Shown: positions 32,434-52,127, counted from the stretch's first letter. The stretch: DNA of 64,000 nt from Alphaproteobacteria bacterium (GCA_963667785.2 CAXXMU010000006.1:288001-352000); one strand, 5' to 3'. Notes: generated by a model not told the origin, from the sequence alone. Program-made: numbers and translations.

Positions 32434-34881
32434 ATGGCTGAGGTTGGGGCCGATCCAGGCGGCTTGGGCGCCGGAGCGGCCGCGGGCGGCAGGCCGCTCC
32501 AGCCGTCGCTCTGGAGCGCCCTCCCCCACTTCCTGCCGCTTCTGATCTTTCCGCTGATCGTCAACGCCGCGCTGCAGGGCAGCTGGTGGATCGCGGCGCC
32601 CTTCGTCTTCTTCATGCTTGCGGGTCCCCTGGATGTCGCGCTCGGCGCGGACGAGAAGAACATGGACCCGGCGAAGACGCCCGAGAGGCGCCTGTTCTGG
32701 CACAATCTGCCGGTCTGGGGGTGGGCGTTTCTCTGGCCCCTGACCTTCGCCTTCACGCTCTGGCAAGTCCTCGTCGTCGGCCATCTGGCCCTTTGGGAGA
32801 CCGCGTTGATGGCGGTGGTGCTCGCGACCGAGGCCCAGGCGGTCTTCATCGTCGGCCACGAGCTGGTCCATCGGCGGCACGCGTGGGAGCGCCGCCTCGG
32901 CGAGTTTCTGCTCGCGTCGGCCTCCTACCCGCACTACGCCACGGAGCACATCTACATTCACCACGCCCTCGTCGGCACGCCGCTTGACGTGGGGTCTGCG
33001 CCCAAGGGCGAGAGCCTCTGGCGCTATTTCCCGCGCGAGCTGGCGAGCAACATCCTCGGCGCCTGGCGCGTCACCCGCGAGCGGCTGGCCCGCCGCCGCC
33101 TGCCCATGTGGCACTACAGCAATCCCTTCTGGCGGTACGGCTTCGAAACCGCTCTCTGGTACGCGCTGATCTACTGGATGGGCGATTGGTGGGCAGTCTT
33201 GATCTACGCCGTACTCTGCCTCGGCGTCGTGCTCTCGATGAAGATCAGCAACTACATCCAGCACTACGGCCTGCGCCGCATCCGCATGCCCAACGGCCGC
33301 TTCGAGAAGGTCCGGCCCCGGCATTCGTGGAGCGCCAGCTGCAGGTTCAGCAACTGGATGTTCTACAACATGCAGCGCCATCCGGATCACCACGCGGTGG
33401 CGAGCCGGCCGTATGCACTGCTGCAGCATCGCGGCGAGGACGAATCGCCGCAGTTGCCTGGGAGCTACGGCAAGATGTTCGGCTTGGCGGTGCGACCGAA
33501 GCGCTGGTTCCGGACCATGGACCCGCTGGTCGATCAGTGGCGCGCCCACTTCTACCCCGAGATCGAGGACTGGAGCCCCTACGACAGCGCGGTTGCCGAA
33601 GCCCGGCCGGAGGCCTTCGACGCCATCGTCGAGATCTTCGGCGCAGCGCCGCGGCTCGCCGGGCTGATCGAGCGAAGCCCGGAGCTGCTCGACAGCCTCA
33701 AAAGCCGGGAGTTTACCGATCTCGATCTTCCGGGCGGCTTCGGGCCGGACCTGGAATTCGAGGCGACCGCCCGCAGTGGCCTCACGCGCCTCTACTGGAC
33801 GCACGAGTTCGGCGTCGCGGAGATGACCGAACAGATCGCCGAAGCGCCCGTTCAGGATGTGAGCGACACGGCGGACTCCGTGCGCAACTGGTCGAACGAC
33901 AAGACCTTCCAGATCGGCATCCACACGCTGCGCGGCAATCTCACCCCGATCGAGGCGGGAACGGCGCTCGCGAATGTCGCGGAGGCCGCGATCGCCGCCG
34001 TGCTCGAGGCGGTCGACGAGGAGATCGCCGAGACCCGCGGCCCGCGCGGCGAGGGAGGGATCGCGGCGGTGGCTCTGGGCGATCTGGCAAGCCGGGACGT
34101 GGCGCCCGGCATGGCGCTGGACCTCCTGTTCGTGCATGAGGGCGGCTCCGCCGGCGAGCAGGAGGCGACGTGCCGCCGCTACCGCGATGCGCTCCGCCGG
34201 CTGTCGCGCGGCAGCCTGCTGTTCGCGGACGCGCCGCGCGGTGGAAAGGGACGGGCCGCGAGAGCGCTCTCGGAGTTCGCCGATGGCGGCTGGAGCGCCG
34301 GATCGGCAGACGCGCTACTGGAGCTGACACGCACGCGCTGCGTCTTCGAATCGGGCGAGAGCGGGATCGGCCGGCGCTTCGACGAGGCGCGGCAGGCGCT
34401 GCTCGGCCGCGGCGACGCGCACGCGGCGCTCGTCGCCGAGCTGCGGGGCGGAGCCGGCGGCACGGCCGCACCGGGGCTTGCCGCGCTCGACGAGATGACC
34501 GGCGGCCTCGACGACGTCGAGCGCACTGCCCGGCTTCTCCAGCTGACCGGCCCCGGAGACGCCGTGGACGATCCGGCGCCCAGGGCGGTGGCAGTCTTCG
34601 AAGTCGCGGGGGCGCATGGCGCGATCCCCGACGACAGCGCGGAGGCCTTGATCGAGGCCGCCACGATGTGGCGCACCCTGCGCGGCATTCTGCGGCTGAT
34701 TGCGGACGACGGCGTCGTGGACGGTGCAGCGGCGACCGGGGTCAAGGCCGCCATTGCGCAGGCCGCCGGGCTGGACGATTTCGACGCGCTCGCCAACACG
34801 ATCCGCGATAGGGCATCCCGCGCCGCAGCCGCGCGCGATGCAGTGAACGGAACGCGTGGCCCCGCTGCCGGCACGAGCTGA
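32434..34881 (+). CDS. AlkB-like membrane di-iron hydroxylase/desaturase fused to a degenerate GlnE-like adenylyltransferase domain
   Basis: His boxes HELVH, EHIYIHH, NYIQHYG, QRHPDHH; C-terminus ALGDLASRDVAPGMALDLLFV and GGLDDVERTARLLQL resemble GlnE. Confidence 0.75.
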   Translation: MAEVGADPGGLGAGAAAGGRPLQPSLWSALPHFLPLLIFPLIVNAALQGSWWIAAPFVFFMLAGPLDVALGADEKNMDPAKTPERRLFWHNLPVWGWAFLWPLTFAFTLWQVLVVGHLALWETALMAVVLATEAQAVFIVGHELVHRRHAWERRLGEFLLASASYPHYATEHIYIHHALVGTPLDVGSAPKGESLWRYFPRELASNILGAWRVTRERLARRRLPMWHYSNPFWRYGFETALWYALIYWMGDWWAVLIYAVLCLGVVLSMKISNYIQHYGLRRIRMPNGRFEKVRPRHSWSASCRFSNWMFYNMQRHPDHHAVASRPYALLQHRGEDESPQLPGSYGKMFGLAVRPKRWFRTMDPLVDQWRAHFYPEIEDWSPYDSAVAEARPEAFDAIVEIFGAAPRLAGLIERSPELLDSLKSREFTDLDLPGGFGPDLEFEATARSGLTRLYWTHEFGVAEMTEQIAEAPVQDVSDTADSVRNWSNDKTFQIGIHTLRGNLTPIEAGTALANVAEAAIAAVLEAVDEEIAETRGPRGEGGIAAVALGDLASRDVAPGMALDLLFVHEGGSAGEQEATCRRYRDALRRLSRGSLLFADAPRGGKGRAARALSEFADGGWSAGSADALLELTRTRCVFESGESGIGRRFDEARQALLGRGDAHAALVAELRGGAGGTAAPGLAALDEMTGGLDDVERTARLLQLTGPGDAVDDPAPRAVAVFEVAGAHGAIPDDSAEALIEAATMWRTLRGILRLIADDGVVDGAAATGVKAAIAQAAGLDDFDALANTIRDRASRAAAARDAVNGTRGPAAGTS

Positions 34882-34882
34882 C

Positions 34883-37210
34883 GTGACGGATCGCCCTGCC
34901 CGATCCGGTTCGCGCCGCGGCATCCTGACGACGACATCCGCTGCCGATCACGATCCGATCGAGCGGCCGGCGCTGACGCCGCACCTTGAATTCCGGTCGC
35001 TCGGTGAAGACCGGGCGCTGCTGGTGTCGGACTCCTTCAACACGTTGCTGCACGGGCGGATCCACTGCGATCTGCTGCCCCTTCTCGACGGCCGGCGCGC
35101 GCGGGACGAGATCGTTGCCGCCCTCGCGGGCGTCCATGCGGGCGCCGAGGTGGAGCAGGCGCTGACCTCGCTTGCGGCGAGGGGATACGTCGTCTCCGGC
35201 GCGCATGTCATGGACCGGTCCCGGGCGGCGTTCTGGTCCGCGCTGGGCGCCTCGCCCTGCCGGGCGGAGGAGCGGCTCGGCGCATCGACGGTCGCGGTCG
35301 AGGGCGACGACGGCCGTCTCGCCCGCGGCCTCGGCGCCATGGGCGTGACGGTGGGCGCAGACCGCCCGACGCTCATCGTCGTCGTCTGCGCGGACTATCT
35401 CGACGAGCGGCACGACTCCCTCAATCGCCGCCACCTTGCCGCACGCACGCCCTGGATGCTGGTCCGGCCCGCCGGCCTGCAGCCGCTCTTCGGACCCGTC
35501 TTCCGGCCGGCGGAGCAGGGCCCCTGCTGGGCCTGCCTCGCCTACCGGATGCGCGGCAATCAGGAGGTTCACACCTTCCTGCGCAATCTGGGCGGCGAGG
35601 ATGCGGCCTTCGTGCCCTTCGCCGCCGTGCCTACCGCCCTGGATGCGGTGGCGGGCCTCGCCGCGGCCGAGATCGCCAAGTGGCTGGTCCTGGGAGACGC
35701 GGCGACGCTCCACGAGAGGGCGATCTCGCTGGACCTCGCCAGCCTCGAGAGCGCGCACCATCCGACCATGCGCCGGCCGCAGTGCCCCGTCTGCGGCGAC
35801 GAGGCGCGCCATCGCGCCGACCGGCCGGCGCAGCCGGTGCGCCTCGGCCCGAGCCCGAAGGGCACGCGCAACAGCGGCGGCGTGCGCACCGTCTCGCCGG
35901 AGGAGACCCTCGCCCGTTACCGGCATCTGATCAGCCCGGTGAGCGGGATCGTCACATGGGTGGCGCGCACCACGGCGGAGTCCGACCCCTGGCTGCACGT
36001 CCACTGGGCCGGCAGCAATCTGGCGCTCCGGATCAGGAGCCTGAGCTCGCTCAGGCGCAGCCTGCGGAGCAAGAGCGCGGGCAAGGGGAGCACCGCGCAG
36101 CAGTCCGAGGTGAGCGCGCTCTGCGAGGCGATCGAGCGCTATTGCGGCGCCTTCCACGGCGACGAGATCAGGCGGCCGGCGCGGTTCTCGGATTTTGCGG
36201 CGGCCGGTGGCACGGAGGCGATCCACCCCAACCAGGTTCAGCTCTTCAGCGAACGGCAACTGGACCACGCAGACGAGATCAATGCCCGCGGCCATCCCTA
36301 CAACGTGGTGCCGCCGCGCTTCGATCCCGAGAAGGAGATCGACTGGTCGCCGGTGTGGTCGCTCACGCAAGGCCGGCACCGCTATCTCCCCACATCCATG
36401 CTCTACGGCATGACTCCCGAGCAGCGGGCGCATGCGGACCTCTGGGCGGATTCGAACGGATGCGCCGCCGGCAACACGCTCGAGGAGGCGATCCTGCAGG
36501 GGTTCTACGAGCTGGTGGAGCGCGATGCCGTCGCCATCTGGTGGTACAACCGGCTGCGCCTGCCCGCGGTGGAGCTCGGGAGCTTCGGCGACGACTACCT
36601 GTCCGCCGCGCCCGACTACTACCGGGGCCGCAATCGCGACATGTGGGTGCTGGACGCGACCTCAGACCTCGGCATCCCCGCCTTCGTCGCGCTCTCGCGC
36701 CGCACGGACGTCGAGAACGAGGACATCATCTACGGCGCCGGCGCGCACGCGGACCCGCACATCGCAGCGCTCCGCGCGGTGTGCGAGATGAACCAGTGCC
36801 TGACCTGGGTGCCAAGCCCGGGCGACGGCGACGGCCGCTACGGCGTGGACGATCCCATGTGCCTGTGGTGGTGGAAGAACGCGACGCTCGCGGACCATCC
36901 CTACCTGGCGTCGGCGCCGGATGCCACGCCGCGCCGCCGGGCGGACTATCCGGTTCCCGACGGCGCCGACCTGAGAGAGGACGTGGAGCGTTGCCGCGCG
37001 CTGGTCGAGGCCCGGGGCATGGAGTTCCTCGTTCTCGACCAGACCCGGGCGGACGTCGGGATGCCGGTGGTTCGGGTGATCGTGCCGGGCCTGCGCCACT
37101 TCTGGGAACGCTTCGCGCCGGGGCGGCTCTTCGACGTGCCGGTGGAGATGGGCCGGCGCGAGTCTCCCCTGGCGGAGTCCGACCTCAATCCGGTCCCGGT
37201 CATCGCCTGA
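34883..37210 (+). CDS. srpC: TOMM/proteusin fused E1-like + YcaO cyclodehydratase
   Basis: GPCWACL, RRPQCPVCG, SAGKG, CEAIERY, DSNGCAAGNTLEEAILQGFYELVERDA, C-terminal PVPVIA; probable GTG at 34883. Symbol assigned by recalled similarity to the sponge srp cluster. Confidence 0.92.
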   Translation: MTDRPARSGSRRGILTTTSAADHDPIERPALTPHLEFRSLGEDRALLVSDSFNTLLHGRIHCDLLPLLDGRRARDEIVAALAGVHAGAEVEQALTSLAARGYVVSGAHVMDRSRAAFWSALGASPCRAEERLGASTVAVEGDDGRLARGLGAMGVTVGADRPTLIVVVCADYLDERHDSLNRRHLAARTPWMLVRPAGLQPLFGPVFRPAEQGPCWACLAYRMRGNQEVHTFLRNLGGEDAAFVPFAAVPTALDAVAGLAAAEIAKWLVLGDAATLHERAISLDLASLESAHHPTMRRPQCPVCGDEARHRADRPAQPVRLGPSPKGTRNSGGVRTVSPEETLARYRHLISPVSGIVTWVARTTAESDPWLHVHWAGSNLALRIRSLSSLRRSLRSKSAGKGSTAQQSEVSALCEAIERYCGAFHGDEIRRPARFSDFAAAGGTEAIHPNQVQLFSERQLDHADEINARGHPYNVVPPRFDPEKEIDWSPVWSLTQGRHRYLPTSMLYGMTPEQRAHADLWADSNGCAAGNTLEEAILQGFYELVERDAVAIWWYNRLRLPAVELGSFGDDYLSAAPDYYRGRNRDMWVLDATSDLGIPAFVALSRRTDVENEDIIYGAGAHADPHIAALRAVCEMNQCLTWVPSPGDGDGRYGVDDPMCLWWWKNATLADHPYLASAPDATPRRRADYPVPDGADLREDVERCRALVEARGMEFLVLDQTRADVGMPVVRVIVPGLRHFWERFAPGRLFDVPVEMGRRESPLAESDLNPVPVIA

Positions 37211-37220
37211 GAGGCCGACA

Positions 37221-38522
37221 ATGAAGAGCCCCATCGACGCAGCAGAATTTCTCGTGTCGAAAGCCGGCGACGACGACGCGTTTCGTGACCGTCTGCGCGC
37301 AAACCCCACGGAAACGATCGAAACGGAGCTGGGCGTCACCCTTGACGAAGGTCATCGGATTCACGTGCACGAAGACAGCTATTCGGCGACCCATCTCGTG
37401 CTTCCGCCGCGCGAGAAATACACTCGAGAAGAACGGGAGGAAGCAAGAGGCGGTGCGGCGTCGCTCGAGTTTCTTCGCAAGACAATGCACGACCCCGCGC
37501 CTCCCCGTCGTCCGCCTGCGCCCGGACGGTCGCGCTCCCGAGAGATCGTTCCTACCGCCGAGGCACTGGCGAGAGAGGCCGAAGAAAGCATCGGTCTCGG
37601 TCTCGAATTCCTGACATCGACCATCGACGAATTCGGAGCCTGGCACTGCATCCGCTTCAACACCGCCGACCCGGACATTCCCCGGCACTTCGAAAGACCC
37701 CCCTTCGTTTCGGCTCTCTGCGTGCTTGCCTTGGAGCGTTGCCGTGACGCGCGCGCAAAGGCCGTGTGCGCTGCCACAAGGGCGTATCTCGTCGGCACGA
37801 TCGAATATCCCGGGCTATGGCGCTACTACCGCCATTTGCCGCAAGACCTCGACAGCACGGCGCTCTGTTCGCTCGTCCTCCGGGCTCATCCCTGGATTTT
37901 GCTGGGCAGAAACGTTCCGAAAATACTGGCCAATCGCGACGAGGAGGGTCGTTTCCTGACATGGCTCCTGGCGGAAGACGAGCCCACCGTCGTGTCGACC
38001 TTTCGCATCGAAGCCGACCCCGTGGTCAATGCGAACGTCATCGCCTATCTCGGCGACCACCCCGAAACCGAACCCGCCCAACGCTGGCTGGAAGCCCTGC
38101 TTGGCGAAGGCGGCGAGACGAATTCGTCCAAATGGTATCCGGATACCGTCGCGATCTACTATGCGATCAGCCGCGCCGTGGTTCGCGTGCAGCCTGCTCT
38201 CGATCGCCTGCGCCCGGTGCTCGCGGAGCGTATCCTGGGTTTGCGCGACGGGGCGGGAGAATTCGGCAACGTTCTCCAGACCGCCCAGGCCGCGTCGGCG
38301 CTCCACAACGTCGGACGCCTCGAAAACGATCACGCCAAACGCCAGGCGGAAACGTTGATCAGTTTGCAAGGTAACGACGGTAGCTGGCCGGAGCTTCTCG
38401 CCTTCGGCGACCAGTCCGTCAAGTGGGGTACGGCAGGCCGGATAGGGCACGGCTCCGAAGCCGTGACGTCCGCGTTCTGCATCGAAGCTCTGGCGCGTCT
38501 CGTCGAGATATTGCGGACTTGA
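37221..38522 (+). CDS. NHLP-leader domain fused to a prenyltransferase/squalene-cyclase-like alpha-barrel domain
   Basis: Residues 1-78 align without gaps to the precursor leader (FR..L.A.P, ELG, VHE, HL.LPP, GG); later PQDLDSTA, DPVVNANV, LQGNDGSWP (QW repeat). Confidence 0.7.
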   Translation: MKSPIDAAEFLVSKAGDDDAFRDRLRANPTETIETELGVTLDEGHRIHVHEDSYSATHLVLPPREKYTREEREEARGGAASLEFLRKTMHDPAPPRRPPAPGRSRSREIVPTAEALAREAEESIGLGLEFLTSTIDEFGAWHCIRFNTADPDIPRHFERPPFVSALCVLALERCRDARAKAVCAATRAYLVGTIEYPGLWRYYRHLPQDLDSTALCSLVLRAHPWILLGRNVPKILANRDEEGRFLTWLLAEDEPTVVSTFRIEADPVVNANVIAYLGDHPETEPAQRWLEALLGEGGETNSSKWYPDTVAIYYAISRAVVRVQPALDRLRPVLAERILGLRDGAGEFGNVLQTAQAASALHNVGRLENDHAKRQAETLISLQGNDGSWPELLAFGDQSVKWGTAGRIGHGSEAVTSAFCIEALARLVEILRT

Positions 38523-38624
38523 GGGAGGCGCCTTTGCGACGCGCTCGCCGGCACGGGCGTTCGCAAGCGCCCTCTCGTTGAAGCCGATTCGACTCCTGCA
38601 CCCGTTGTCGCGTGAGGAAGCACC

Positions 38625-39743
38625 ATGGACGTTGACGAGGCAGTCACGCTTACCCAGGACCGTCTTGCCCGAGAGGGCGGCACCATGGCCGACCTGCTCG
38701 GGCACTTTCGAAGCGGGATCTCGCCGGTTCTCATCGGCGATCCGGAATGGGAGGACATACTCGACTGCGCCGGGAAACTTCCCATCACCATGGGCGCTCT
38801 GCCGTTCGGCTTTGAACTGCCGCTGCATGCGCGCAGGCCACAGGCCGATTTCGGTGTTTCGCTCGCGAGCGGAACCAGAACGGCGGCGTTTTTCGAGGAA
38901 CGCGCTCGGACCGACCGGTCGGATGGAACCGCGAAAGCGATCATGCAGTTGTTCAGACAAATGGATGACGAAGACTCACCGCTGCGTGACATTGTCGGCC
39001 GCAAGTTGATGCTGGAATTCGACATCGGCTCGGCGCGGGAAGGCAAGACATCGCTTCCGGGCATGTTCCTGCGGCCGGGCGAACGCCCCATCATCGGCGC
39101 CCGTGGTCAGGCGGACGATGTCGCCATGGTGGTCGACGCGCTCGCTTCCTGCGTCGGCTGGGAGGTGACCGACGCCGAGCGGGCGACCGTCGAACGCGTT
39201 TACCTGGCGCAGCCGGGAGAGACGCGCATGGATTCGTTCGGTGTGTTCCCGTCTCGCTCGCGGGCGATCCGCCTGGCGATCATGGGCTTCAGATCGGGGC
39301 AGGAAACATGTTCCTATCTTGAAGACACGGGCTGGCCGGGCCGAATCCAGACCGTCGCCTCCGTGATTGCGCGCTTCAGGGAGCGCGCGAACATCGTCAG
39401 GATCGGGGCGAACATCGACGTGCAGGAAGAGGGTCTCGGTCCAACGCTCGGCCTCACGCTCATCGTCAAGCAGAGATACACGAAGGATTCGCGCTATTGG
39501 CTCGACGGCCTGACCGATTGGGACCCGTTCCTGGCGGCACTGAGCCACGAGGACCTCGTCGTTCCGGAGAAGCTTGCGGCGCTTGCTGACTGGGTCTCGA
39601 AACCGACAACGCTTTTTGCGAAGTCCGGGCAGTATGTACTGCTGCGCGGCATTCACCACATAAAGCTTGTCATATCCGGAAATCGGCTCCGACACGCGAA
39701 AGCCTACGTGTTCATGGTGCTTTCCGGAGCGGTCTCGGCTTAG
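38625..39743 (+). CDS. Hypothetical protein, putative ABBA-type peptide/aromatic prenyltransferase
   Basis: FGFELPL..ADFGV, LMLEFD, IRL, GPTLGL, HHIKLV..AKAY pattern recalls prenyltransferase domains seen with RiPP terpene cyclases; unverified. Confidence 0.45.
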   Translation: MDVDEAVTLTQDRLAREGGTMADLLGHFRSGISPVLIGDPEWEDILDCAGKLPITMGALPFGFELPLHARRPQADFGVSLASGTRTAAFFEERARTDRSDGTAKAIMQLFRQMDDEDSPLRDIVGRKLMLEFDIGSAREGKTSLPGMFLRPGERPIIGARGQADDVAMVVDALASCVGWEVTDAERATVERVYLAQPGETRMDSFGVFPSRSRAIRLAIMGFRSGQETCSYLEDTGWPGRIQTVASVIARFRERANIVRIGANIDVQEEGLGPTLGLTLIVKQRYTKDSRYWLDGLTDWDPFLAALSHEDLVVPEKLAALADWVSKPTTLFAKSGQYVLLRGIHHIKLVISGNRLRHAKAYVFMVLSGAVSA

Positions 39744-39752
39744 AGACGAAGG

Positions 39753-39780
39753 TGCCCCCCGGCGTTCGCGAAGGGGGGCA
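39753..39780. terminator. Hairpin between convergent genes
   Basis: tgcccccc ... ggggggca inverted repeat. Confidence 0.45.
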
Positions 39781-39849
39781 GTTCAGGCCGCGCACGAACG
39801 CGGATTCGGAATGTTCCGCTTGTGACCGGCTACACGCCGGCCATGGGAT

Positions 39850-40101
39850 CTACCAGCAGCAGCACAGCCCGGCCGAGATGGCCTCGAGCTGCTCCTCGCT
39901 GATGTTTGGGTCCGGCGGCAACGCGAGATGCACCGTCTGCATGTCGCTCTCATGGACCTTAATCGTCATCGACTCGGGAATGGTGATGCCCAGCTCCTCG
40001 GAGATGGTGCTCTTCGGATCTGCGAGAAGCTGCTGCCTGAAATCCGCATCCAGAGCAGACTTCTCGACTATCTGCTTCAGCATTTCGTCGCCACTTCTCA
40101 T
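39850..40101 (-). CDS. srpE: Proteusin/NHLP RiPP precursor, 78-aa leader plus core LCCCW
   Basis: DADFRQQLLADPK..ELG..VHE..HLALPP..EQLEAISAG|LCCCW; ATG at 40101 after AAGGGAG. Symbol from recalled sponge srp precursor with core LCCCW. Confidence 0.93.
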   Translation of the reverse strand: MRSGDEMLKQIVEKSALDADFRQQLLADPKSTISEELGITIPESMTIKVHESDMQTVHLALPPDPNISEEQLEAISAGLCCCW

Positions 40102-40255
40102 GGCAATGCTCCCTTGGTTCACGCACGATACCGAGTAACACGATCATTTTTCCCGGTCAAGCGCCTGAAGTAACGGAATTTATTATGGTATCGGCAAGTT
40201 TATCTTATGACGCCGGAATGCCTGGTGTGGCGTACGGCGGCCGCGCGCCGGCTTC

Positions 40256-42598: not shown

Positions 42599-42620
42599 TG
42601 GACTGGCGCCACCTTTCCGC

Positions 42621-45563: not shown

Positions 45564-47773
45564 CAGCCTGACCTCGCCAGCTTGAAATAGGTGCCGTCCC
45601 GGTCCGCGATCAGCTCCTCGTGCGTGCCGCGCTGCACTTCGACGCCCTTGTCGAGCACGATGATCTCGTCGCAATCCCGCACGGTGCTGAGCCGGTGTGC
45701 GACGATCAGGCAGGTGGTGCCGCGACGCCGCAAGGCGTCGTCCACGCGTTCCTCCGTCGCGGCGTCGAGGGCGCTGGTCGCTTCGTCCAGAATCAGCAGG
45801 GTCGGATTGCCGACCAGCGCACGGGCGATCTCCAGCCGTTGCCGCTGACCGCCGCTGAAATTCGCCCCGCCTTCCTCGACGAGGGTCGAATACCCCTGCG
45901 GCCTGACGAGAATTTCGTCATGGATTCCCGCATCCCGCGTCGCGGCGAAGATGGCTTCATCGGGAACAGCCGGGTTCCACAGGGTGATGTTGTCGCGAAG
46001 GGTGGCGGAAAAGAGCACGACGTCCTGATCCACCATGGAAATGGACTGCCGCAGCACTTCCTCCGGAATCTCGTCCCGCACGTGGCCGTCGAACAGAATC
46101 TCACCCGACCAGGGCTGATAGACGCCCGAAACCAGTCGCGCCAGGGTCGACTTGCCGGACCCGCTGGGGCCGACCACCGCAACGCGATGCCCCGGCTTGA
46201 TCACGAGGTTGAAGTCCTTGATCAAGGGCGGCCGGCTCTTGTTGAACCCGAAGGTGATGTTTCGCAGCTCGAGCTGGCCGGCAAGCTGGAGCCGGCCGTT
46301 GAACGTGGGGATCGATTCCGATTCCGGACTGCGGCGCTCGAACACGGGGTCTTCGGCGGCCTTGGAAATGTCGTCCAGGCGCTGCAAGTCGGTTTCCAGC
46401 GCCTGGCGCTTCTCGGCGAACTCCAGGAAGCGCCCGACGGGTGCCAGAAACATCTCCGCCAGTATGTAGAACCCGACCAGCGTCCCCAGCGTCATGTCTC
46501 CGGCCATGACAAGACTTCCTCCGAAGCCCAGGATCGCCGCGCTGCGAAGTGCGGCAATCAGGCCCGGAAGCGCGGTATTGACGGAACCCAGTTCCGAATA
46601 GAGCTGGCGCGCCCGAAGCTCGCGCGCCTGCTGACCGCTCCAGCGCGAAAAGAAGCGGTCATCCGCGCCCGTCATGCGCAGGTTTTCCGCGTGATTCAGC
46701 ATCTGCATGCCGAAGCCGATCAGCAGGCCTTGTTCGCGCCTCATTGCCTGACTTCGAACGGCCCGGAGCCCGTTGAGAAAGTGAGCCAGAATTCCGTGCA
46801 GAAGGGCAAGAAACAACACGATCAGCGTCAGCAGTGCATCGTAGGCGAACATCGCGATGAGCAATATCACGCTCATCGCCATGTCGATGATGAGCACGAG
46901 GAACTGATCCGTCAGATTCTTTGCGACTCTGTCGATGGACGAGACTCGATCGGTGAGGTCGCCGACCAGTCTGTGTTCGAAGAAATCCACCGGCAATCGC
47001 AGCAGCCGGGTCAAGCCCCGACTGTAGCCAATCACTGAAATTCGGACGGCCAGTCGCTTCAGGAACCGGTGCTTGAGCAGCGAGAGAACGTAGACCAGTA
47101 CACCGCCGCCCAGCAACGCCGCCACCACTCCGCCCCACGCCCCGTGGTTTTCCAGAACGTCGTCCACGAACACGCCGAGAGAAGCGGGAACGATGAGCGT
47201 GAGCAGCGTCAACAGGAGTCCGCAGGCAAGAAGTCCCGCAACCACACGCCACGACTCCACGGGCAGGCTGCTCAACTGCCTGACCAGGCCGATGCGCTCG
47301 CCACCGGGCGTGAAGTCGGCACCGCGGCTGAACTGCAACGCTATTCCACTGTAGCTCCGCGTGAACTCTTCTGCGGAAACCCGGCGCCGACCGGTCGCCG
47401 GATCATTGAGATGGAAATAGCGGTCGTCAAACCCTTCGAGAATGACGAAATGGCTGAATTGCCAGAACAGAATCAGGGGTAACTGCAGCCTTTTCAGCTG
47501 CTCGGCCCGCACGCTGAGTCCCCTGCATTCGAGACCGTAATGTCTTGAGGCGCGCAAGATGCTCGCGGCACTGCTGCCGTCCCGGCTCACCTCGCATTTC
47601 TCGCGCAATTCGGTAGGTGGCACCCAGCGTCCGAAGTAGGCCAGGACGCTGCCGAGGCAGGTGGCGCCACATTCCGATGCATGCATCTGCAACAGAATTG
47701 GCGTCGTTACCCTTCGTTTCGAGACGTCCGCGCCGGCCTTGTCGCTTGCCCCCTTGGAGGCGCGCAGGGGCAT
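45563..47773 (-). CDS. NHLP-family C39 peptidase-containing ABC exporter
   Basis: LQMHASECGATCL, SRDGS, FWQFSHFVILEG, NDPATG, GPSGSGKST, FSGGQRQRLEIARAL. Confidence 0.92.
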   Translation of the reverse strand: MPLRASKGASDKAGADVSKRRVTTPILLQMHASECGATCLGSVLAYFGRWVPPTELREKCEVSRDGSSAASILRASRHYGLECRGLSVRAEQLKRLQLPLILFWQFSHFVILEGFDDRYFHLNDPATGRRRVSAEEFTRSYSGIALQFSRGADFTPGGERIGLVRQLSSLPVESWRVVAGLLACGLLLTLLTLIVPASLGVFVDDVLENHGAWGGVVAALLGGGVLVYVLSLLKHRFLKRLAVRISVIGYSRGLTRLLRLPVDFFEHRLVGDLTDRVSSIDRVAKNLTDQFLVLIIDMAMSVILLIAMFAYDALLTLIVLFLALLHGILAHFLNGLRAVRSQAMRREQGLLIGFGMQMLNHAENLRMTGADDRFFSRWSGQQARELRARQLYSELGSVNTALPGLIAALRSAAILGFGGSLVMAGDMTLGTLVGFYILAEMFLAPVGRFLEFAEKRQALETDLQRLDDISKAAEDPVFERRSPESESIPTFNGRLQLAGQLELRNITFGFNKSRPPLIKDFNLVIKPGHRVAVVGPSGSGKSTLARLVSGVYQPWSGEILFDGHVRDEIPEEVLRQSISMVDQDVVLFSATLRDNITLWNPAVPDEAIFAATRDAGIHDEILVRPQGYSTLVEEGGANFSGGQRQRLEIARALVGNPTLLILDEATSALDAATEERVDDALRRRGTTCLIVAHRLSTVRDCDEIIVLDKGVEVQRGTHEELIADRDGTYFKLARSG

Positions 47774-47774
47774 T

Positions 47775-48326
47775 TTATGATCGCCTCATTTGCAGGAAGG
47801 CGACCGGCGACTGTCTGCCGAGCTCGATGACGATCCGGCATTCTCTGCTCGCAAGGGATGCAATATCCAAACCGGCATCGAGCGCAATCTCGATTCGGTG
47901 CATCAGGACCGGCGCCGCACCCTCCAACGTCGCCAGCGAGCCGGACAGCGGTACGGCGGAAACGCTCGCGACCTCTCCGTCCCGGGTGGCCGCCTCTCCA
48001 TCCGCCATGACGAGCTCGATCACTGCCGGCAGTCCCGCCTTGATATTCGGCGCGAATTCGCTCTCGATCCAGACGAGGGCCTGCACGGACTCGCTGTCGA
48101 CGCCCAGGCTTTCGCCGGGCTCGATAAGGACGCCGTCTACCGAATGGCTGCGCGCTACATCGCCAAAGACGAGCCATGCTGCCAGCGCAACCAGCAACAG
48201 GGCGATACCCGCGACGAGCAGGCGCTCCCGCGGTGTGGAAATCGTCAGAAGCCGGTCGAGTTGTTCGCGTTCTTCTTTTGCCTTGGCAACTGTATCATGA
48301 AAGGAGTCAAAGGGATTATTGAACAC
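47775..48326 (-). CDS. Short NHLP secretion accessory protein (HlyD-like, lacking the long coiled coil)
   Basis: EQLDRLLTISTPR plus a TM helix as in NHLP secretion proteins; C-terminal QSPVAFL; GTG at 48326 after GGAGG. Confidence 0.65.
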   Translation of the reverse strand: MFNNPFDSFHDTVAKAKEEREQLDRLLTISTPRERLLVAGIALLLVALAAWLVFGDVARSHSVDGVLIEPGESLGVDSESVQALVWIESEFAPNIKAGLPAVIELVMADGEAATRDGEVASVSAVPLSGSLATLEGAAPVLMHRIEIALDAGLDIASLASRECRIVIELGRQSPVAFLQMRRS

Positions 48327-48614
48327 GACCGCCGTAGCCTCCGCAAAGAAATCGGCCAATTCCAAGAAAAAGCTGATGTGACTTGCGTGGCGCTTTGTCG
48401 AATCCTATACAAGCTCGACCGAAAAAGGTCAAGTCTTGGGACTCCCGGCAAATTCGGCTTGACGTGCTTCGGTTGAGTGCGACCATCCTGCGGCGCGCGC
48501 CGCCACCGTGTCGCGAATCCCATGCAGAGGATGCGTCCTGAAGTTGCCGGATAGTCCGGGACTTCGCCCTTTCCGGGAAGTCAAGGTACAATACGCGGTG
48601 CTCATCACTGGACG

Positions 48615-49493
48615 TTGCGGATGTTCCCTGGGCACGAAACCGGCGACAGGCGCGTTGCCCACCACGGCTGGGCCAGGCGCTTTAGGTTCTCCCTGCGCGC
48701 GTCGTCGGCAGTCCTGATTCTGATGCTGGCGGGCTTATGCCTGCAATTTGTGGAAGCCCTCGCCCAGGACGAAACGCCGGAGGAAAAGGGCCTCAGGATT
48801 GCGCGTGAAGCCAGCGCCCGCAACGACGGTTTCGGCGACTTCACCGCCGAGATGACGATGGTGCTGCGCGATCGCCACGGTCGGGAAAGTGTCCGTCAAA
48901 TGCGCCTCAAGGTGCTGGAGGTGCCGGAAGACGGCGACAGGAGCCTGTTCGTGTTCGATCAGCCGCGAGACGTGCAGGGAACCGCCCTGCTCACCCATGC
49001 CCACGTCAACGCGCCGGACGACCAATGGCTCTATCTGCCGGCCCTGAAAAGGGTGAAGCGCATCAACGCCTCGAGGCGTTCGGGGGCCTTCATGGGAAGC
49101 GAGTTTTCATACGAAGACATGAGCTCGCAGGAGGTGGACGAATACAACTACAAGTACCTTCGCGACGAGCCCTGCGGGGAACTGACCTGTACGGTGACCG
49201 AGCAAATTCCCCTGGACAAGGAGTCCGGATACAGCCGCAGAATCGCTTGGCAAGACACGATCGAGCTTCGAATCTGGAAGATGGAGCTTTACGACCGAAA
49301 GAACTCGCACCTGAAGACCCTTACACTCGTGGGTTATCAGCAGTATCTGGATCGGTACTGGCGGGCGGGGGAGCAGACCATGGTGAACCACCTCACCGGA
49401 GCGAGCACGGTTCTCAAGTGGTCAGGTTTTCAGTTTCGCAACAATCTTAGCGAGAGCGAATTTACCCAGACGGCACTTAGACGCGTGCGCTGA
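48615..49493 (+). CDS. LolA-like outer-membrane lipoprotein-sorting protein
   Basis: PRDVQGTALL..DDQWLYLPALKRVKRI..FMGSEFSYED; true start probably downstream. Confidence 0.85.
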   Translation: MRMFPGHETGDRRVAHHGWARRFRFSLRASSAVLILMLAGLCLQFVEALAQDETPEEKGLRIAREASARNDGFGDFTAEMTMVLRDRHGRESVRQMRLKVLEVPEDGDRSLFVFDQPRDVQGTALLTHAHVNAPDDQWLYLPALKRVKRINASRRSGAFMGSEFSYEDMSSQEVDEYNYKYLRDEPCGELTCTVTEQIPLDKESGYSRRIAWQDTIELRIWKMELYDRKNSHLKTLTLVGYQQYLDRYWRAGEQTMVNHLTGASTVLKWSGFQFRNNLSESEFTQTALRRVR

Positions 49494-50713
49494 TGCGAGT
49501 CGGCGGTGCAATTGCGGCCCTCCTGTTCTTGGCCGCCGCAAGCGCCAAGGCACAAACTCTGGATTACTCGGGCGACCTGAGCCTGGAGGGGCGGTGGTAT
49601 CCGCAATCGCCGGCGTTCCCGGATCAGCGCTCCGGCACCGGCGGACTGGTCGTCAAGCCGACTGTCTACGGCGATTTGGGGGAATCGACCAGCTTTGCTG
49701 TCTCCGCGTTCTATCGGTACGACAGCGCCGATTCGCGGCGCACGCACGCGGACCTGCGCGAGGCGTATCTCCTGACCTACGGAGACTGGGAGGACATTTC
49801 CTGGGAGCTCAGGCTGGGCATTGACCGCGTTTTCTGGGGCGTTGCCGAGCTGACCAACCTCGTGGATATCGTCAACCAATTGGACCTCGTCGAGCATCCC
49901 CGCAATCGACCGAAGCTCGGCCAACCCATGGCGCACCTGACGATATTCGGCGACTGGGGCATCGCCGAGACGTTCGTGCTGCCGTATCATCGCAAGCGCC
50001 CCTCTGCGGGACGTCACGGGCGTCACCGTTCCGGCTTTCTGATTGACGAAAGCGCCTTGTACGAGAGCGGTGCCGGAGAACGTCACGTCGACTTCGCCTT
50101 TCGCTACAGCAACACCGTGGATTTGCTCGATTTCGGCCTGACGGCATTTGCCGGAACAAGCCGCGAGCCGTCTTTTCTCGCCCGCCATCAATCCGAGACG
50201 ATCGGCGCGGCCCTGATTCCGTACTACGAGCAAATCCGGCAATTCGGATTGGACGCGCAGCTCACGACCGAGCCATGGCTTTACAAAATGGAGGCGATTT
50301 ACCGCAGCGGAGCGCACAATCTCCTGGGCCGGGAGGAGGATTACGGCGCCGTCATCGTCGGCACGGAACGCACCCTCTACGCCGTGTTCGATACCCGAGC
50401 CGACCTGACCGTCCTGGCCGAGACGCTCTACGACGGACGCGATCGTCGTGCGACGAGTGCCTGGGCGAACGACCTGTTTGTCGCGGGGTCCGTCGCATTC
50501 AACGACGTGCAGAGCACCACGCTCGTTGCCGGCATCCTGGCCGACCTCCGCCACGATTATCGTGTGTTGAGCCTGGATCTGAAACGTCGGCTGTCGAGCG
50601 GCTGGTCGATGCGCGTGGAGGCCATCGCGAATCTCAGCATGGATCCGCAGGACCTGACTTACGATGGACGGCGCGACAGCTTCCTGGGCGCAGAAGTCAC
50701 GTACAGCTTCTGA
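49493..50713 (+). CDS. Putative outer-membrane beta-barrel protein
   Basis: Signal peptide; DLREAY, LRLGIDRVFWGV, DIVNQ; amphipathic strands; C-terminal YSF. Confidence 0.75.
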   Translation: MRVGGAIAALLFLAAASAKAQTLDYSGDLSLEGRWYPQSPAFPDQRSGTGGLVVKPTVYGDLGESTSFAVSAFYRYDSADSRRTHADLREAYLLTYGDWEDISWELRLGIDRVFWGVAELTNLVDIVNQLDLVEHPRNRPKLGQPMAHLTIFGDWGIAETFVLPYHRKRPSAGRHGRHRSGFLIDESALYESGAGERHVDFAFRYSNTVDLLDFGLTAFAGTSREPSFLARHQSETIGAALIPYYEQIRQFGLDAQLTTEPWLYKMEAIYRSGAHNLLGREEDYGAVIVGTERTLYAVFDTRADLTVLAETLYDGRDRRATSAWANDLFVAGSVAFNDVQSTTLVAGILADLRHDYRVLSLDLKRRLSSGWSMRVEAIANLSMDPQDLTYDGRRDSFLGAEVTYSF

Positions 50714-50852
50714 TGGGCATCCGTGGCCTGGACGTGGCAGCCGCTGCAATCGGCGATGACAGGACGATCATGGTAGCCGGCCCCGCACACCGCCCTTCCA
50801 TGCGTTCCGGCGCGGGGCGGCCGGGCGCCGACCGCTGCGAGGGTCAGTCGCG

Positions 50853-52127
50853 GTGATGCTGCCGGGCATGAGTTCCTTGCGGAGGATCGCGGTCGTCGGG
50901 CGAGGCACCGCAGGGTCCCTGGCGGCCGCGAGCGTGTCCCGGCTTCTCTCGGGCAGCGACCACGAATTGCACCACATATACGATTCGCGCATCCCCGTTA
51001 TCGGCGTCGGCGAAGGCAGCTGGCCGAGCCTGGTACAGGAACTGCAGCGGCTGACCGATTTGCCCCACGAAACGGTCCAGCAGCGCCTGAAGGGAACGCG
51101 CAAGTACGGCGTGGCGTTCGAGGGATGGGGGCGACGCGGCCGCGACTTCACCCACTACTTCACGCCGCAACAGGTGTCCTACGCCTACCACCTGTCAGCC
51201 GACTTGATGGGCGAGCTGTTGCACGAAAGCACGCGCGCTCGCCACATCGACGCAAGGGTGCTCGACATCGCGAGGGTGGAAGGCGGCGCGCAGGTGGAAT
51301 GCGAGGGCCTGGCGCCGGAGCGCTATGATCTGGTCTTCGATGCCCGCGGGTTCCCCAAGGAGCTCGATCCCGACCGCCACATCGACATTTCCTTCATCCC
51401 CACCAACACGGCCGTCATCCGCCGCTGCCCGGCAATCGTCGAGGACAGGCAGGACGGGCCGGTCGTGCAGCATACCTACACCCGTGCGGTCGCGCGTCCG
51501 CACGGCTGGATATTCGTCATTCCGCTGACGGTCCACACGTCCTACGGGTACATCTTCAACCGCGACGTCACCGGCCTTACCGACGTGGAGTCGGACTTCG
51601 ACGCATTTCTCGAAGGCGACGGCGTGTCGGAATTCGAACAACGCGCCGTCATTCCCTTTCCCAACTATGTCCACCGTCAGATATTCGATGGTGCGGTGGC
51701 ACGCGTCGGCAACGCGGCGGCCTTCATGGAGCCTCTCGAAGCGACGGCGATCGTATCCGCCCAGTTGCAGATCGGGATGGTCCCCCACATGCGCCTCAAC
51801 CGTTCGATCGAGCATCTCGAGCGCGACGCACCGGTGGTCAATCGCTTTCTCATCAGCAACATGCTCTGCTACGGCCTGTTCGTCGGCTGGCACTATTCCT
51901 GCGGTTCCCGGTACGACAGCGAGTTCTGGCGCCACGCCCGCAACCACGTCTGGCCTCGACACCGAGAGGCAGCGGACCCCGAGGCGGTGGATTGCACCGC
52001 GCTCCGCAAGTTCGACGACATGATCGAACTGATGAACCGGGCAGTCATCGACAAGGCGGACTGGAACCGGATGTGCGCGGTCCCCCTCACCAGCTACGCC
52101 CAGATGTCGCAGGGGCTTGGCGTTTAG
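50853..52127 (+). CDS. srpI: Flavin-dependent tryptophan halogenase (peptidyl Trp brominase-like)
   Basis: GRGTAG, IGVGEGS, catalytic Lys in TRKYGVAF, GWIFVIP, AAFMEPLEATAI; compact 424 aa. Symbol from recalled srp cluster. Confidence 0.88.
   Translation: MMLPGMSSLRRIAVVGRGTAGSLAAASVSRLLSGSDHELHHIYDSRIPVIGVGEGSWPSLVQELQRLTDLPHETVQQRLKGTRKYGVAFEGWGRRGRDFTHYFTPQQVSYAYHLSADLMGELLHESTRARHIDARVLDIARVEGGAQVECEGLAPERYDLVFDARGFPKELDPDRHIDISFIPTNTAVIRRCPAIVEDRQDGPVVQHTYTRAVARPHGWIFVIPLTVHTSYGYIFNRDVTGLTDVESDFDAFLEGDGVSEFEQRAVIPFPNYVHRQIFDGAVARVGNAAAFMEPLEATAIVSAQLQIGMVPHMRLNRSIEHLERDAPVVNRFLISNMLCYGLFVGWHYSCGSRYDSEFWRHARNHVWPRHREAADPEAVDCTALRKFDDMIELMNRAVIDKADWNRMCAVPLTSYAQMSQGLGV

Follow-up and report, generated by a model that had tools for sequence, protein, structure and literature searches.

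The srp clusters are sponge-derived RiPP proteusin clusters that encode the precursor SrpE, the YcaO enzyme SrpC and the brominase SrpI (PMC10858898, PMC10286304, bioRxiv 10.1101/2023.06.09.544420). The published core of SrpE is LCCCW (PMC10858898). Three thiazolines are reported as the work of SrpC, and bromination of the Trp (Trp-6) as that of SrpI (PMC10858898; PMC10286304); SrpC by itself modifies SrpE poorly in E. coli (PMC10286304). The clusters are reported in sponges with diverse microbiomes, and their precursor genes were the top-transcribed ones within RiPP clusters in two sponge species (bioRxiv 10.1101/2023.06.09.544420). A second described system, NctPC, joins an ABBA prenyltransferase and an MstE-like cyclase in one protein, which attaches a geranylgeranyl chain to a Trp in a ribosomal peptide before cyclising that chain (PMC13290415). 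Every characterised long-chain peptide prenyltransferase named in the excerpted text of that review targets Trp (PMC13290415).

How does the window, a stretch of 64,000 nucleotides from an Alphaproteobacteria bacterium (GCA_963667785.2 CAXXMU010000006.1:288001-352000), compare with these systems? Its cluster resembles the srp clusters in its NHLP precursor with an LCCCW core, its YcaO, its Trp halogenase and its cross-phylum spread in sponge metagenomes. There is no difference in kind; what is added here is a functional reading of conserved unnamed genes. With NctPC and ChrPC, as excerpted descriptions present them, it shares a predicted ABBA-fold prenyltransferase, an MstE-like monodomain class II cyclase, a ribosomal pathway and a core Trp. 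This likeness is one of description. The two activities form one polypeptide in NctPC/ChrPC but separate genes, D and C, here. Unlike those maturases, the window cyclase carries an NHLP-leader-like domain, and the window adds predicted thiazoline formation, bromination, an AlkB-type oxygenase and lipid-type exporters.

We lean towards an end product that is a small lipophilic brominated peptide-terpenoid hybrid of the srp-type proteusin pathway. In silico, the reading as a terpenylated peptide draws support from conserved linkage, from folds, from a catalytic motif and from the context of sister clusters whose cores have no Trp. The NctPC precedent also speaks for it, as does an RND protein of hopanoid-transporter type in the company of a LolA-like protein. 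Why has the srp product been missed? Its lipophilic character may explain why peptide-oriented searches failed to find it. If the reading is true, chemists should look in lipophilic fractions, and the genes to co-express are those named below. Terpene-annelated ribosomal peptides would then reach beyond cyanobacteria into sponge symbionts of many phyla, a prenyltransferase family not yet characterised would join the known ones, and C would be the first tailoring enzyme known to us that is joined to a copy of the leader of its own substrate.

The srp cluster of the window

Judged by its sequence, the cluster belongs to the srp peptide clusters that are widespread in sponge microbiomes, an identity that follows from the LCCCW core, the match to the published SrpE/SrpC/SrpI chemistry and near-identical precursors across phyla. 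It lies complete at 32434-52127, bordered by housekeeping genes, and every element named in the preliminary description was recovered. ORF and family searches located the NHLP precursor with LCCCW, the YcaO, the Trp halogenase and the C39/ABC exporters. The three extra enzymes, starting at 32434, 37221 and 38625, are all on the (+) strand, as is YcaO, and the lipid-type export triad comprises RND (MMPL), LolA-like and DUF1302-like proteins by Pfam matches. The genes are as follows.

Upstream border: M24 peptidase, galactarate dehydratase
32434-34881 (+): A, predicted AlkB-type membrane di-iron oxygenase/desaturase with a GlnE/GlnD-like domain, 815 aa (FA_desaturase 9.6e-26, GlnE 3.4e-7)
34856-37210 (+): B, fused E1-like leader-binding and YcaO cyclodehydratase, SrpC counterpart (Pfam YcaO 1.9e-97)
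37221-38522 (+): C, predicted class II terpene cyclase, 433 aa (no family above cut-off)
38625-39743 (+): D, protein of predicted ABBA (PT-barrel) prenyltransferase fold, 372 aa (no sequence family)
39850-40101 (-): E, NHLP (proteusin) precursor, SrpE counterpart, 83 aa, ending ...ISEEQLEAISAG-LCCCW
40256-42598 (-): F, MMPL/HAE3-type RND transporter, HpnN-related (Pfam MMPL 1e-35, Sterol-sensing 9e-13)
42621-45674 (-): G, NHLP-type ABC exporter subunit 2 (permease/ATPase), 1017 aa (NHLM_micro_ABC2 TIGR03797 1.6e-201)
45563-47773 (-): H, C39 peptidase-ABC exporter, NHLP ABC subunit 1 (Peptidase_C39 1.1e-32, plus ABC)
47775-48365 (-): short membrane protein, 196 aa, resembling the N-terminal piece of the NHLP HlyD-type secretion protein (TIGR03794 6.9e-6)
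48615-49493 (+): I, LolA-like periplasmic lipid/lipoprotein carrier-fold protein (Pfam LolA_like 3.9e-58)
49493-50713 (+): J, DUF1302-like protein (Pfam DUF1302 4.7e-6, 26.3 bits against a cut-off of 23.2)
50853-52127 (+): K, flavin-dependent Trp halogenase, SrpI counterpart (Pfam Trp_halogenase 2.9e-44)
Downstream border: PEP mutase, adenylate kinase, SecY

The six-frame translation contains LCCCW directly before a stop a single time, on the minus strand at the end of the 83-aa ORF of E (an alternative GTG start at 40122 would give 90 aa). E passes the NHLP leader model TIGR03793 (70.7 bits, cut-off 50.9) and is convergent with the 372-aa gene D, an arrangement that adds to the earlier list. 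Copies 87-96% identical to E are present in 80 loci, which by their record titles span Pseudomonadota, Acidobacteriota, Gemmatimonadota, Chloroflexota, Binatota and others; among the sequencing runs that contain at least half of the sampled words, two carry the label sponge metagenome. B scores 275.6 bits with TIGR03604 (cut-off 219) and 153.6 bits with the TOMM leader-binding model TIGR03882. K carries GxGxxG at residues 16-21, and copies 68-87% identical to it are found in 49 of the 80 loci. The azoline dehydrogenase that had been noted as missing was not detected in the whole 4.09-Mb genome either, where no SagB-type protein (TIGR03605) reaches the cut-off and the best match, on another contig, scores 23.5 bits against 78.4.

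The srp background that the preliminary description gave (LCCCW core, Cys cyclodehydration, Trp bromination) agrees with the excerpted text of PMC10858898 and PMC10286304. Its proposal of an undescribed system survives in part: the cluster is the published srp cluster, and what is undescribed is limited to its product and to what these genes do. The order of genes in most loci, together with the published letters C, E and I, suggests that the cyclase is srpA, the AlkB-like gene srpB and the prenyltransferase srpD. The literature covered here holds no printed link between srp and prenylation; the original srp and NctPC papers lie outside its scope and may discuss these genes.

Candidate prenyltransferase, cyclase and oxygenase

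Fold, motif and gene neighbourhood are the basis of all functional assignments made for A, C and D. In its predicted structure, D looks like a prenyltransferase. Its model (pLDDT 86.6, pTM 0.87) is an ABBA barrel of five alpha-alpha-beta-beta units by DSSP, and the Foldseek matches listed for it are aromatic prenyltransferases throughout. VIA matches agree with the barrel as well, and the best structural matches are indole prenyltransferases. R216, H345, K347, K359 and Y361, conserved in 49 diverse homologues, lie on predicted barrel strands, and the named language-model neighbours of D are Trp_DMAT and PTase_Orf2 clusters. At the sequence level D matches nothing in Pfam (even at E 10), NCBIfam or the PDB. 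It is 7-13% identical to MpnD (4yla), CymD (6os5), 6-DMATS (6zry) and NphB (1zcw), a distance that, with its place outside Pfam, sets it apart from the DMATS-type/ABBA indole prenyltransferases. Assignment to Trp_DMAT, PTase_Orf2 or related Pfam models was rejected, as none matched at E 10. The D family comprises 579 representatives at E <= 0.001; among 49 members scanned against Pfam, 48 belonged to no family and one gave a weak Cu-oxidase_4 match (E 0.0095). A word-limited and therefore weak search found no fused prenyltransferase-cyclase relative of D. Prenyltransferase and cyclase each have a gene of their own in the window, as in the 80 loci, and for that reason they were not assigned to the fused NctPC/ChrPC-type maturases.

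C, as judged from its model and alignments, looks like a class II terpene cyclase whose acid motif is intact. An NHLP-leader-like domain (residues ~5-85) and a Pro-rich linker precede a predicted class II terpene cyclase fold, an alpha/alpha barrel of the beta-domain type. A profile match to AsDMS (E 1.4e-5) places LPQDLDST of C opposite FPDDLDTT, with D211 opposite AsDMS D333 in the HMM alignment; the D333N mutant chain shows N at this position. D209, L210, D211 and S212 are invariant in 30 of 30 sequences. MstE uses DxD, not DxDD, according to the excerpted text of PMC12414744. C is 16-22% identical to MstE (6sbc) and AsDMS (9m7f, 9mhs). No squalene-cyclase repeat was detected in C above cut-off (SQHop_cyclase_C E 0.034, 13.6 bits against 26.1; TIGR01787 E 0.0067). 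Some C homologues have a precomputed PF13243.

The three cyclases differ at the N-terminus: MstE has no partner there, AsDMS (drimenol synthase) has a HAD phosphatase and C has the leader copy. Unlike theirs, the presumed substrate of C is a peptide-bound chain. The N-terminus of C is homologous to precursor E (E 4e-17); its L(X)4L motif is incomplete, the second Leu being absent. The precursor itself uses the L(X)4L motif for YcaO and SrpI.

A combines a predicted oxygenase/desaturase (residues ~30-400) with a nucleotidyltransferase-fold domain (~460-800). FA_desaturase lies above cut-off, and four histidine-rich boxes, which we take to be the AlkB signature, are near-invariant in 49 aligned sequences. 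NCBIfam GlnE models cover residues 473-797, Pfam GlnE scores 30.4 bits against a cut-off of 24, and the atlas neighbours of residues 400-815 are all GlnE/GlnD_UR_UTase clusters. A differs from AlkB-type alkane hydroxylases in its fusion to a GlnE-like domain, the catalytic core of which is poorly conserved. Mean agreement with the window residue is 0.68 in the oxygenase half, 0.54 at 460-600 and 0.38 at 600-815. At the presumed DxD site of the NTase core, located by reading the motif directly, the second position lacks an acid in 14 of 49 sequences and the first is mostly Ala, Val or Gly. From these alignments the GlnE-like half looks catalytically degenerate. No rubredoxin gene was seen in the cluster. 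The elements of the peptide-terpenoid proposal that can be tested in silico, namely the core match, the ABBA fold, the cyclase fold, the histidine boxes and conservation among LCCCW clusters, all came out as predicted.

Conservation, sister clusters and the prenyl acceptor

Conservation was counted in the 55 loci with full 10-kb flanks, out of the 80 precursor loci from many phyla. Within 10 kb of the precursor, C and D are each present in 50 loci, YcaO in 52, the AlkB-like gene in 42 and the halogenase in 36, so that the three extra enzymes are conserved among LCCCW clusters. Lack of such conservation was a refuting condition of the preliminary description, which this count does not bear out. 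YcaO and the AlkB-like gene lie interspersed with D and C, and the arrangement takes at least two forms; the placement of the cyclase between YcaO and the prenyltransferase is peculiar to the window.

Relatives of the D family led to 32 metagenome loci, eight of which have cores without Trp (LCCCT, GRCCC, LCCCGI, LCCCGF, LSCCL). All eight retain a D-like gene, directly after YcaO, whose product is 40-53% identical to D; YcaO was recorded in seven, MMPL in seven and an AlkB-like gene in the fetched DNA of seven (partial in L093 and L106). These Trp-less clusters have no cyclase or halogenase and carry lipid-/isoprenoid-type tailoring enzymes instead. Those scanned encode an Amino_oxidase protein (3.1e-47), MpaB/Lcp rubber-oxygenase domains (9e-15, 7e-16), CMAS/UbiE-type methyltransferases, a GGR-like flavoprotein and FAD_binding_4 enzymes. 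The tree of D gathers every LCCCW locus into a single clade (100/100) whose branch is long (0.58), with the Trp-less D-like proteins outside it. The link of cyclase and halogenase to Trp is therefore a single evolutionary event, not many.

Which group, then, would accept the isoprenyl chain? Since the Trp-less sister clusters retain the prenyltransferase, the acceptor need not be Trp, and their retention of it argues against Trp as the universal acceptor. A tentative variant places the prenyl group on a feature common to CCC cores (an uncyclised Cys sulfur, a thiazoline or the C-terminal carboxylate) and leaves Trp as the bromination site only, perhaps also as the end-point of cyclisation. The persistence of the D-like gene in all eight loci, next to lipid-/isoprenoid-type enzymes, favours it. 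However, the Trp-less proteins are distant from D and stand outside the LCCCW clade, so that specificity may have changed between the two; the long-chain enzymes in the review excerpt all act on Trp (PMC13290415), and the nearest structures to D are indole prenyltransferases. It is conceivable, though we would not assume it, that srp represents a single branch within a larger, undescribed class of ribosomal isoprenoid lipopeptides. Its members would combine a CCC-core NHLP precursor with YcaO, an oxygenase of AlkB type and a prenyltransferase from a new ABBA family. Their acceptor would be Cys, thiazoline or the C-terminus, not Trp. The lipid would be tailored in linear form in the Trp-less branch or cyclised onto a brominated indole in the srp branch, where the leader copy of the cyclase could recruit it to its substrate or to partner enzymes or, less likely, act as a secretion signal for the C39-ABC exporter, with the cofactor-free cyclase working outside the cytoplasm.

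Proposed pathway and export

For the peptide-terpenoid hybrid that we favour, YcaO would convert the three Cys of LCCCW to thiazolines, as shown elsewhere for SrpE/SrpC, and the halogenase would brominate the C-terminal Trp, as shown elsewhere for SrpI. D would take an isoprenyl chain from a diphosphate donor and attach it to the core; the chain would be C10 or longer, probably C15 or C20, and would go either to the Trp indole or to a feature shared with Trp-less cores. Isoprenyl diphosphate synthases are absent from the cluster, and two are encoded elsewhere in the genome. C would act as a cofactor-free class II cyclase in which D211 protonates the terminal double bond and the chain folds into rings, closure possibly ending on the indole. 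Its leader-like domain may dock the cyclase to the pathway or cap the active site. A would oxidise the lipid part at the membrane, the C39-ABC pair would cleave after ...SAG and export the product, and the RND/LolA-like/DUF1302-like triad would carry the greasy molecule across the envelope. The cluster as a whole would move horizontally among sponge symbionts. The predicted product is LCCCW minus 3 H2O, plus Br, plus C15H24 or C20H32, with [M+H]+ of 855.275 or 923.338 (79Br).

Could the product be a brominated tri-thiazoline peptide only, with D and C as non-catalytic helpers (leader-binding scaffolds, chaperones or immunity proteins)? We think this improbable. D does lack a sequence family, the leader-like domain of C may do no more than bind partners in the pathway, the GlnE-like half of A shows that a degenerate-looking domain is present in the cluster, and the reported poor modification of SrpE by SrpC alone in E. 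coli fits a need for helpers (PMC10286304). Against these points, the acid motif of C is unvarying and aligned with the catalytic Asp of AsDMS, basic and aromatic residues are kept on the barrel strands of a large D family, the D-like gene is paired with lipid-/isoprenoid-type tailoring enzymes in the Trp-less clusters, and the exporters are of lipid type. It is very unlikely that D and C are mere fellow travellers that make a small meroterpenoid or terpene of their own, for instance a prenylated indole or benzoate with MstE-like cyclisation. Small molecules are indeed the substrates of the nearest solved cyclases (MstE, AsDMS), and free indoles or amino acids those of the closest solved prenyltransferases (MpnD, CymD, DMATS), but D and C keep within 10 kb of the precursor across many phyla, are interleaved with its YcaO and AlkB-like genes, include a fusion to a copy of its leader, and are accompanied in the cluster by no gene that family searches would assign to an aromatic small-molecule acceptor.

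The export genes match their families to differing degrees. F matches TIGR00921 (2.5e-44) and the hopanoid transporter HpnN (2.5e-37), both below cut-off, and G and H score with TIGR03797 (671 bits, under the cut-off of 709) and TIGR03796 (835.7 bits, under 853), respectively. J is probably located in the outer membrane. The 196-aa gene at 47775-48365 is an addition to the earlier gene list. Its product matches TIGR03794 at positions 6-71 of 421 only, and copies 52-73% identical to it adjoin the C39-ABC gene in 16 other loci.

Gene content and conservation of the srp cluster

Twelve genes lie in the segment 32434-52127. They are arranged in three groups, four on the plus strand, five convergent on the minus strand and three more on the plus strand, and housekeeping genes flank the segment on either side. 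The preliminary description had placed here an NHLP precursor with the core LCCCW, a YcaO protein, a Trp halogenase and C39/ABC exporters, and all of them were found within these borders. The three extra enzymes it had noted (A, C and D) lie on the plus strand like the YcaO gene. It had also reported no azoline dehydrogenase; in agreement with this, a profile search of the whole genome detected no SagB-type dehydrogenase at the cut-off.

Genes of the cluster (window positions, strand, identity). The paired counts are loci with a tblastn match to the window protein at at least 45% identity, among the 55 loci with full 10-kb flanks and among all 80 (the best 80 of 222 relatives of the precursor).
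A, 32434-34881, plus: candidate AlkB-type oxygenase/GlnE-like fusion (FA_desaturase 9.6e-26; GlnE-like domain 3.4e-7); 42/55, 53/80
B, 34856-37210, plus: YcaO (1.9e-97) with TOMM leader-binding domain; 52/55, 70/80
C, 37221-38522, plus: candidate class II terpene cyclase, 433 aa; 50/55, 58/80
D, 38625-39743, plus: candidate ABBA-fold prenyltransferase, 372 aa; 50/55, 72/80
E, 39850-40101, minus: NHLP precursor (leader model 70.7 bits, cut-off 50.9)
F, 40256-42598, minus: MMPL/HAE3 RND transporter; 12/55, 15/80
G, 42621-45674, minus: NHLP-type ABC subunit 2; 50/55, 59/80
H, 45563-47773, minus: C39 peptidase-ABC subunit 1; 23/55, 28/80
196-aa gene, 47775-48365, minus: similar to the N-terminal piece of an NHLP HlyD-type protein (E 6.9e-6)
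I, third block, plus: LolA-like (LolA_like 3.9e-58); 26/55, 33/80
J, third block, plus: DUF1302-like (DUF1302 4.7e-6); 21/55, 25/80
K, third block, plus: Trp halogenase (Trp_halogenase 2.9e-44); 36/55, 49/80

The six-frame translation contains a single LCCCW directly before a stop, at the C-terminal end of E. Passages of PMC10858898 and PMC10286304 describe the same core in SrpE, conversion of its three Cys to thiazolines by the YcaO protein SrpC and bromination of its C-terminal Trp by SrpI. The window cluster is an srp cluster. Such precursors are reported, in part of 10.1101/2023.06.09.544420, to be the top-transcribed RiPP-cluster genes of two sponge species. Among the public runs listed as containing the cluster sequence, none is of RNA.

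How widely is the gene set kept? One genome per prokaryotic species was scanned for relatives of E; 222 were confirmed, and the best 80 were kept. These 80 are 87-96% identical and come from Pseudomonadota, Acidobacteriota, Gemmatimonadota, Chloroflexota, Binatota and others, and AGLCCCW forms the C-terminal end in every one (80/80). The preliminary description had predicted a brominated, thiazoline-containing, terpenylated product, a reading that a lack of conservation of the extra enzymes among LCCCW clusters would have refuted. They are conserved, C and D each in 50 of the 55 fully flanked loci and A in 42. The usual gene order is C, A, B, D and the convergent precursor, against A, B, C, D in the window; the gene set has therefore been kept through rearrangement.

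Candidate prenyltransferase, cyclase and oxygenase

Protein D has no sequence match in Pfam, NCBIfam or PDB. Against solved structures, a profile of its close homologues gave 0 matches at E <= 10, and a diverse profile gave only four chance-level ones (E 0.35-2.6). Its family is of considerable size: searched against 1.8 billion library proteins, it counts 579 representatives at E <= 0.001. The AlphaFold model, built with 30 homologues (pLDDT 86.6, pTM 0.87), contains five alpha-alpha-beta-beta units, and Foldseek returned aromatic prenyltransferases throughout, among the matches listed. Five residues that fall on strands of the predicted barrel, R216, H345, K347, K359 and Y361, are conserved among 49 diverse members of the family. 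Neighbours of D in a language-model atlas include the Trp_DMAT and PTase_Orf2 clusters, at a low recognition value. A search of weak evidential value detected no fused relative of greater length.

Protein C combines two parts. Residues 5-85 match the leader model TIGR03793 (E 5.3e-10, below the cut-off) and are 38% identical to the precursor over 71 residues (E-value 4e-17); judged by sequence, this region is a copy of the NHLP leader. A profile of the remaining, candidate cyclase domain retrieves AsDMS by sequence (E 1.4e-5), with LPQDLDST of C opposite FPDDLDTT, and the Asn of the deposited D333N mutant of AsDMS is aligned with D211 of C. D209, L210, D211 and S212 are invariant in 30/30 aligned homologues. 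MstE, according to a passage in PMC12414744, uses DxD, not DxDD.

What might a leader copy do on a cyclase? The L(X)4L motif of the precursor is used with YcaO and SrpI, as part of PMC12455567 reports. The copy in C lacks the second Leu of this motif, and the Gly aligned to the last leader residue is invariant. The copy may dock to the substrate or to partner proteins, or it may cap the active site of a monodomain cyclase; a role as export signal would be the least likely of these options.

Four boxes rich in histidine (HELVHR, EHIYIHH, NYIQHYG and QRHPDHH) are present in protein A; they are near-invariant in 49 aligned sequences, and we take them to be the AlkB signature. Its C-terminal half has a poorly conserved GlnE/GlnD-type nucleotidyltransferase match; mean agreement with the window residue is 0.38-0.54 there versus 0.68 in the oxygenase half. 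The second position of the putative catalytic acidic pair lacks an acid in 14/49 sequences. We infer that the C-terminal half is probably a non-catalytic binding or scaffold domain.

Trp-less sister clusters and the possible prenyl acceptor

A metagenome scan with an alignment of closer D-family relatives yielded 32 loci. In seven, a precursor was not within reach, and six others, with LCCCW, were not long enough for assessment. Eight have cores without Trp: LCCCT (L086), GRCCC (L087, L089), LCCCGI (L090, L093, L094), LCCCGF (L103) and LSCCL (L106). A gene resembling D, at 40-53% identity to it, is retained in all eight. Within the fetched DNA, YcaO matches (61-76% identity) and MMPL matches are each present in seven of the eight; so are matches to A, at 56-68% where full length, with parts only in L093 and L106 (48% in the latter). 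Neither a C-like cyclase nor a K-like halogenase was found in the fetched DNA of any of the eight (0/8), including the five loci of at least 14 kb (0/5). A cyclase is present in 11/11 LCCCW metagenome loci of at least 14 kb.

A tree of D retained 47 of 99 rows: that of the window, those of the metagenomes in full and every fourth one of the genomes. All LCCCW loci in it group as a single clade (100/100), whose branch is long (0.58), and every cyclase-bearing locus falls inside this clade. Cyclase and halogenase are thus cleanly tied to Trp, yet by a single evolutionary event, because all LCCCW loci share one D clade. One locus, L097, encodes beside its normal LCCCW precursor another NHLP precursor (L097:12679-12924, plus strand) with GMCCCGI at its C-terminal end, and thus both core types can sit side by side.

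The neighbours of the D-like gene were examined by a Pfam scan of 18 frames from six D-branch loci, five of them Trp-less (L086, L087, L089, L090, L094) and one without a precursor in reach (L092). Beside the gene lie an Amino_oxidase flavoprotein (3.1e-47), MpaB/Lcp rubber-oxygenase domains (9.2e-15, 7.3e-16), CMAS/UbiE-type methyltransferases, FAD_binding_4 enzymes and a flavoprotein that matches geranylgeranyl reductase only weakly (2.9e-5, below the cut-off). Four of the frames have no family and two are flanking genes. Sterol/CMAS-type methyltransferases gave two matches each in seven of the eight Trp-less loci and one in L086. The Amino_oxidase, MpaB/Lcp, CMAS/UbiE-type, geranylgeranyl-reductase-like and FAD_binding_4 families are known to act on lipid or isoprenoid chains. 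Their presence in the scanned loci supports the proposal that the D family attaches a lipid, probably an isoprenoid. In the Trp-less clusters the acceptor cannot be Trp.

Which residue, then, would be prenylated in the LCCCW peptide? It could be Trp, given that the cyclase goes with Trp and that there is a precedent in NctPC, a fusion of an ABBA prenyltransferase and an MstE-like cyclase for which a passage of PMC13290415 describes geranylgeranylation of a peptide Trp followed by cyclisation of the chain. It could also be a feature common to CCC cores, because the prenyltransferase is retained where Trp is missing.

For the pathway as a whole, published srp chemistry supplies the formation of thiazolines by YcaO and the bromination of Trp by the halogenase. 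D would furnish the core with an isoprenyl chain; C would protonate the terminal double bond via D211 and then cyclise the chain, cofactor-free; and A would oxidise the lipid part at the membrane. H would cut after the double-Gly-type ...SAG and, with G, export the product, while F, I and J would take this lipophilic product through the envelope. For the brominated tri-thiazoline core the calculated M is 650.080; with C15H24 (+204.188) or C20H32 (+272.250) attached, [M+H]+ would be 855.275 or 923.338 for 79Br, as a 1:1 Br doublet. Cyclisation would leave the mass unchanged, and the action of A would be expected to give +O or -2H variants. The cluster encodes no supply of the donor; two polyprenyl synthases are present elsewhere in the genome.

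The srp cluster is already known, as are ribosomal peptides with a cyclised isoprenoid in cyanobacteria. We found no link between srp and prenylation or terpenes in the full texts searched, including PMC12615548, PMC12715784, PMC12455567, PMC12537861 and PMC10286304, and no description in the literature searched of the srp gene assignment, the leader-fused cyclase or the Trp-less sister clusters; the original srp (PMC8780398) and NctPC (PMC11484575) papers, with their supplements, may bear on this. The proposed pathway predicts a structure, open to test, for the srp product, which is reported as widespread and strongly expressed.

Possible acquisition and neighbouring genes

In the genus of the window genome, the D gene is present in 5/18 other species, in three of them at 81-85% identity, and in 0/12 genomes from other genera of the same order or class. 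Horizontal spread fits this distribution, the gene being patchy within the genus and not found in those 12 genomes. A D-like gene in a congeneric genome (G004:C2:32901-33983, 43% identity) contains one in-frame TGA, which could reflect decay of this copy or a mistake in the assembly. G+C over most of the cluster (36001-52000) is 0.61-0.68 versus 0.71-0.73 just upstream (28-32 kb), with the YcaO region as an exception at 0.74; the lower values fit acquisition from elsewhere.

The 196-aa protein has one membrane helix and matches only the first 70 of 421 positions of the NHLP HlyD model, and in 16 further loci a copy of its gene adjoins C39-ABC. The protein is apparently an adaptor of the ABC pair in strongly shortened form. 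About 330 N-terminal residues of G lie outside TIGR03797 (match 331-1016), and homologues whose alignment starts at residue 1 retain them. ORFs on the plus strand opposite the MMPL gene, among them 40185-40478 and 40826-42256, have no family match and were not counted as genes.

A sterol-methyltransferase-like gene (26040-27071, minus strand; 343 aa, Sterol_MT_C 1.6e-16, CMAS 6.5e-14) lies about 5 kb upstream. It was rejected as a cluster member, as it was found in 0/80 srp loci (best 80 of 222), and is probably unrelated to srp; for a bacterium associated with sponges, such a sterol-type methyltransferase may be interesting on its own.
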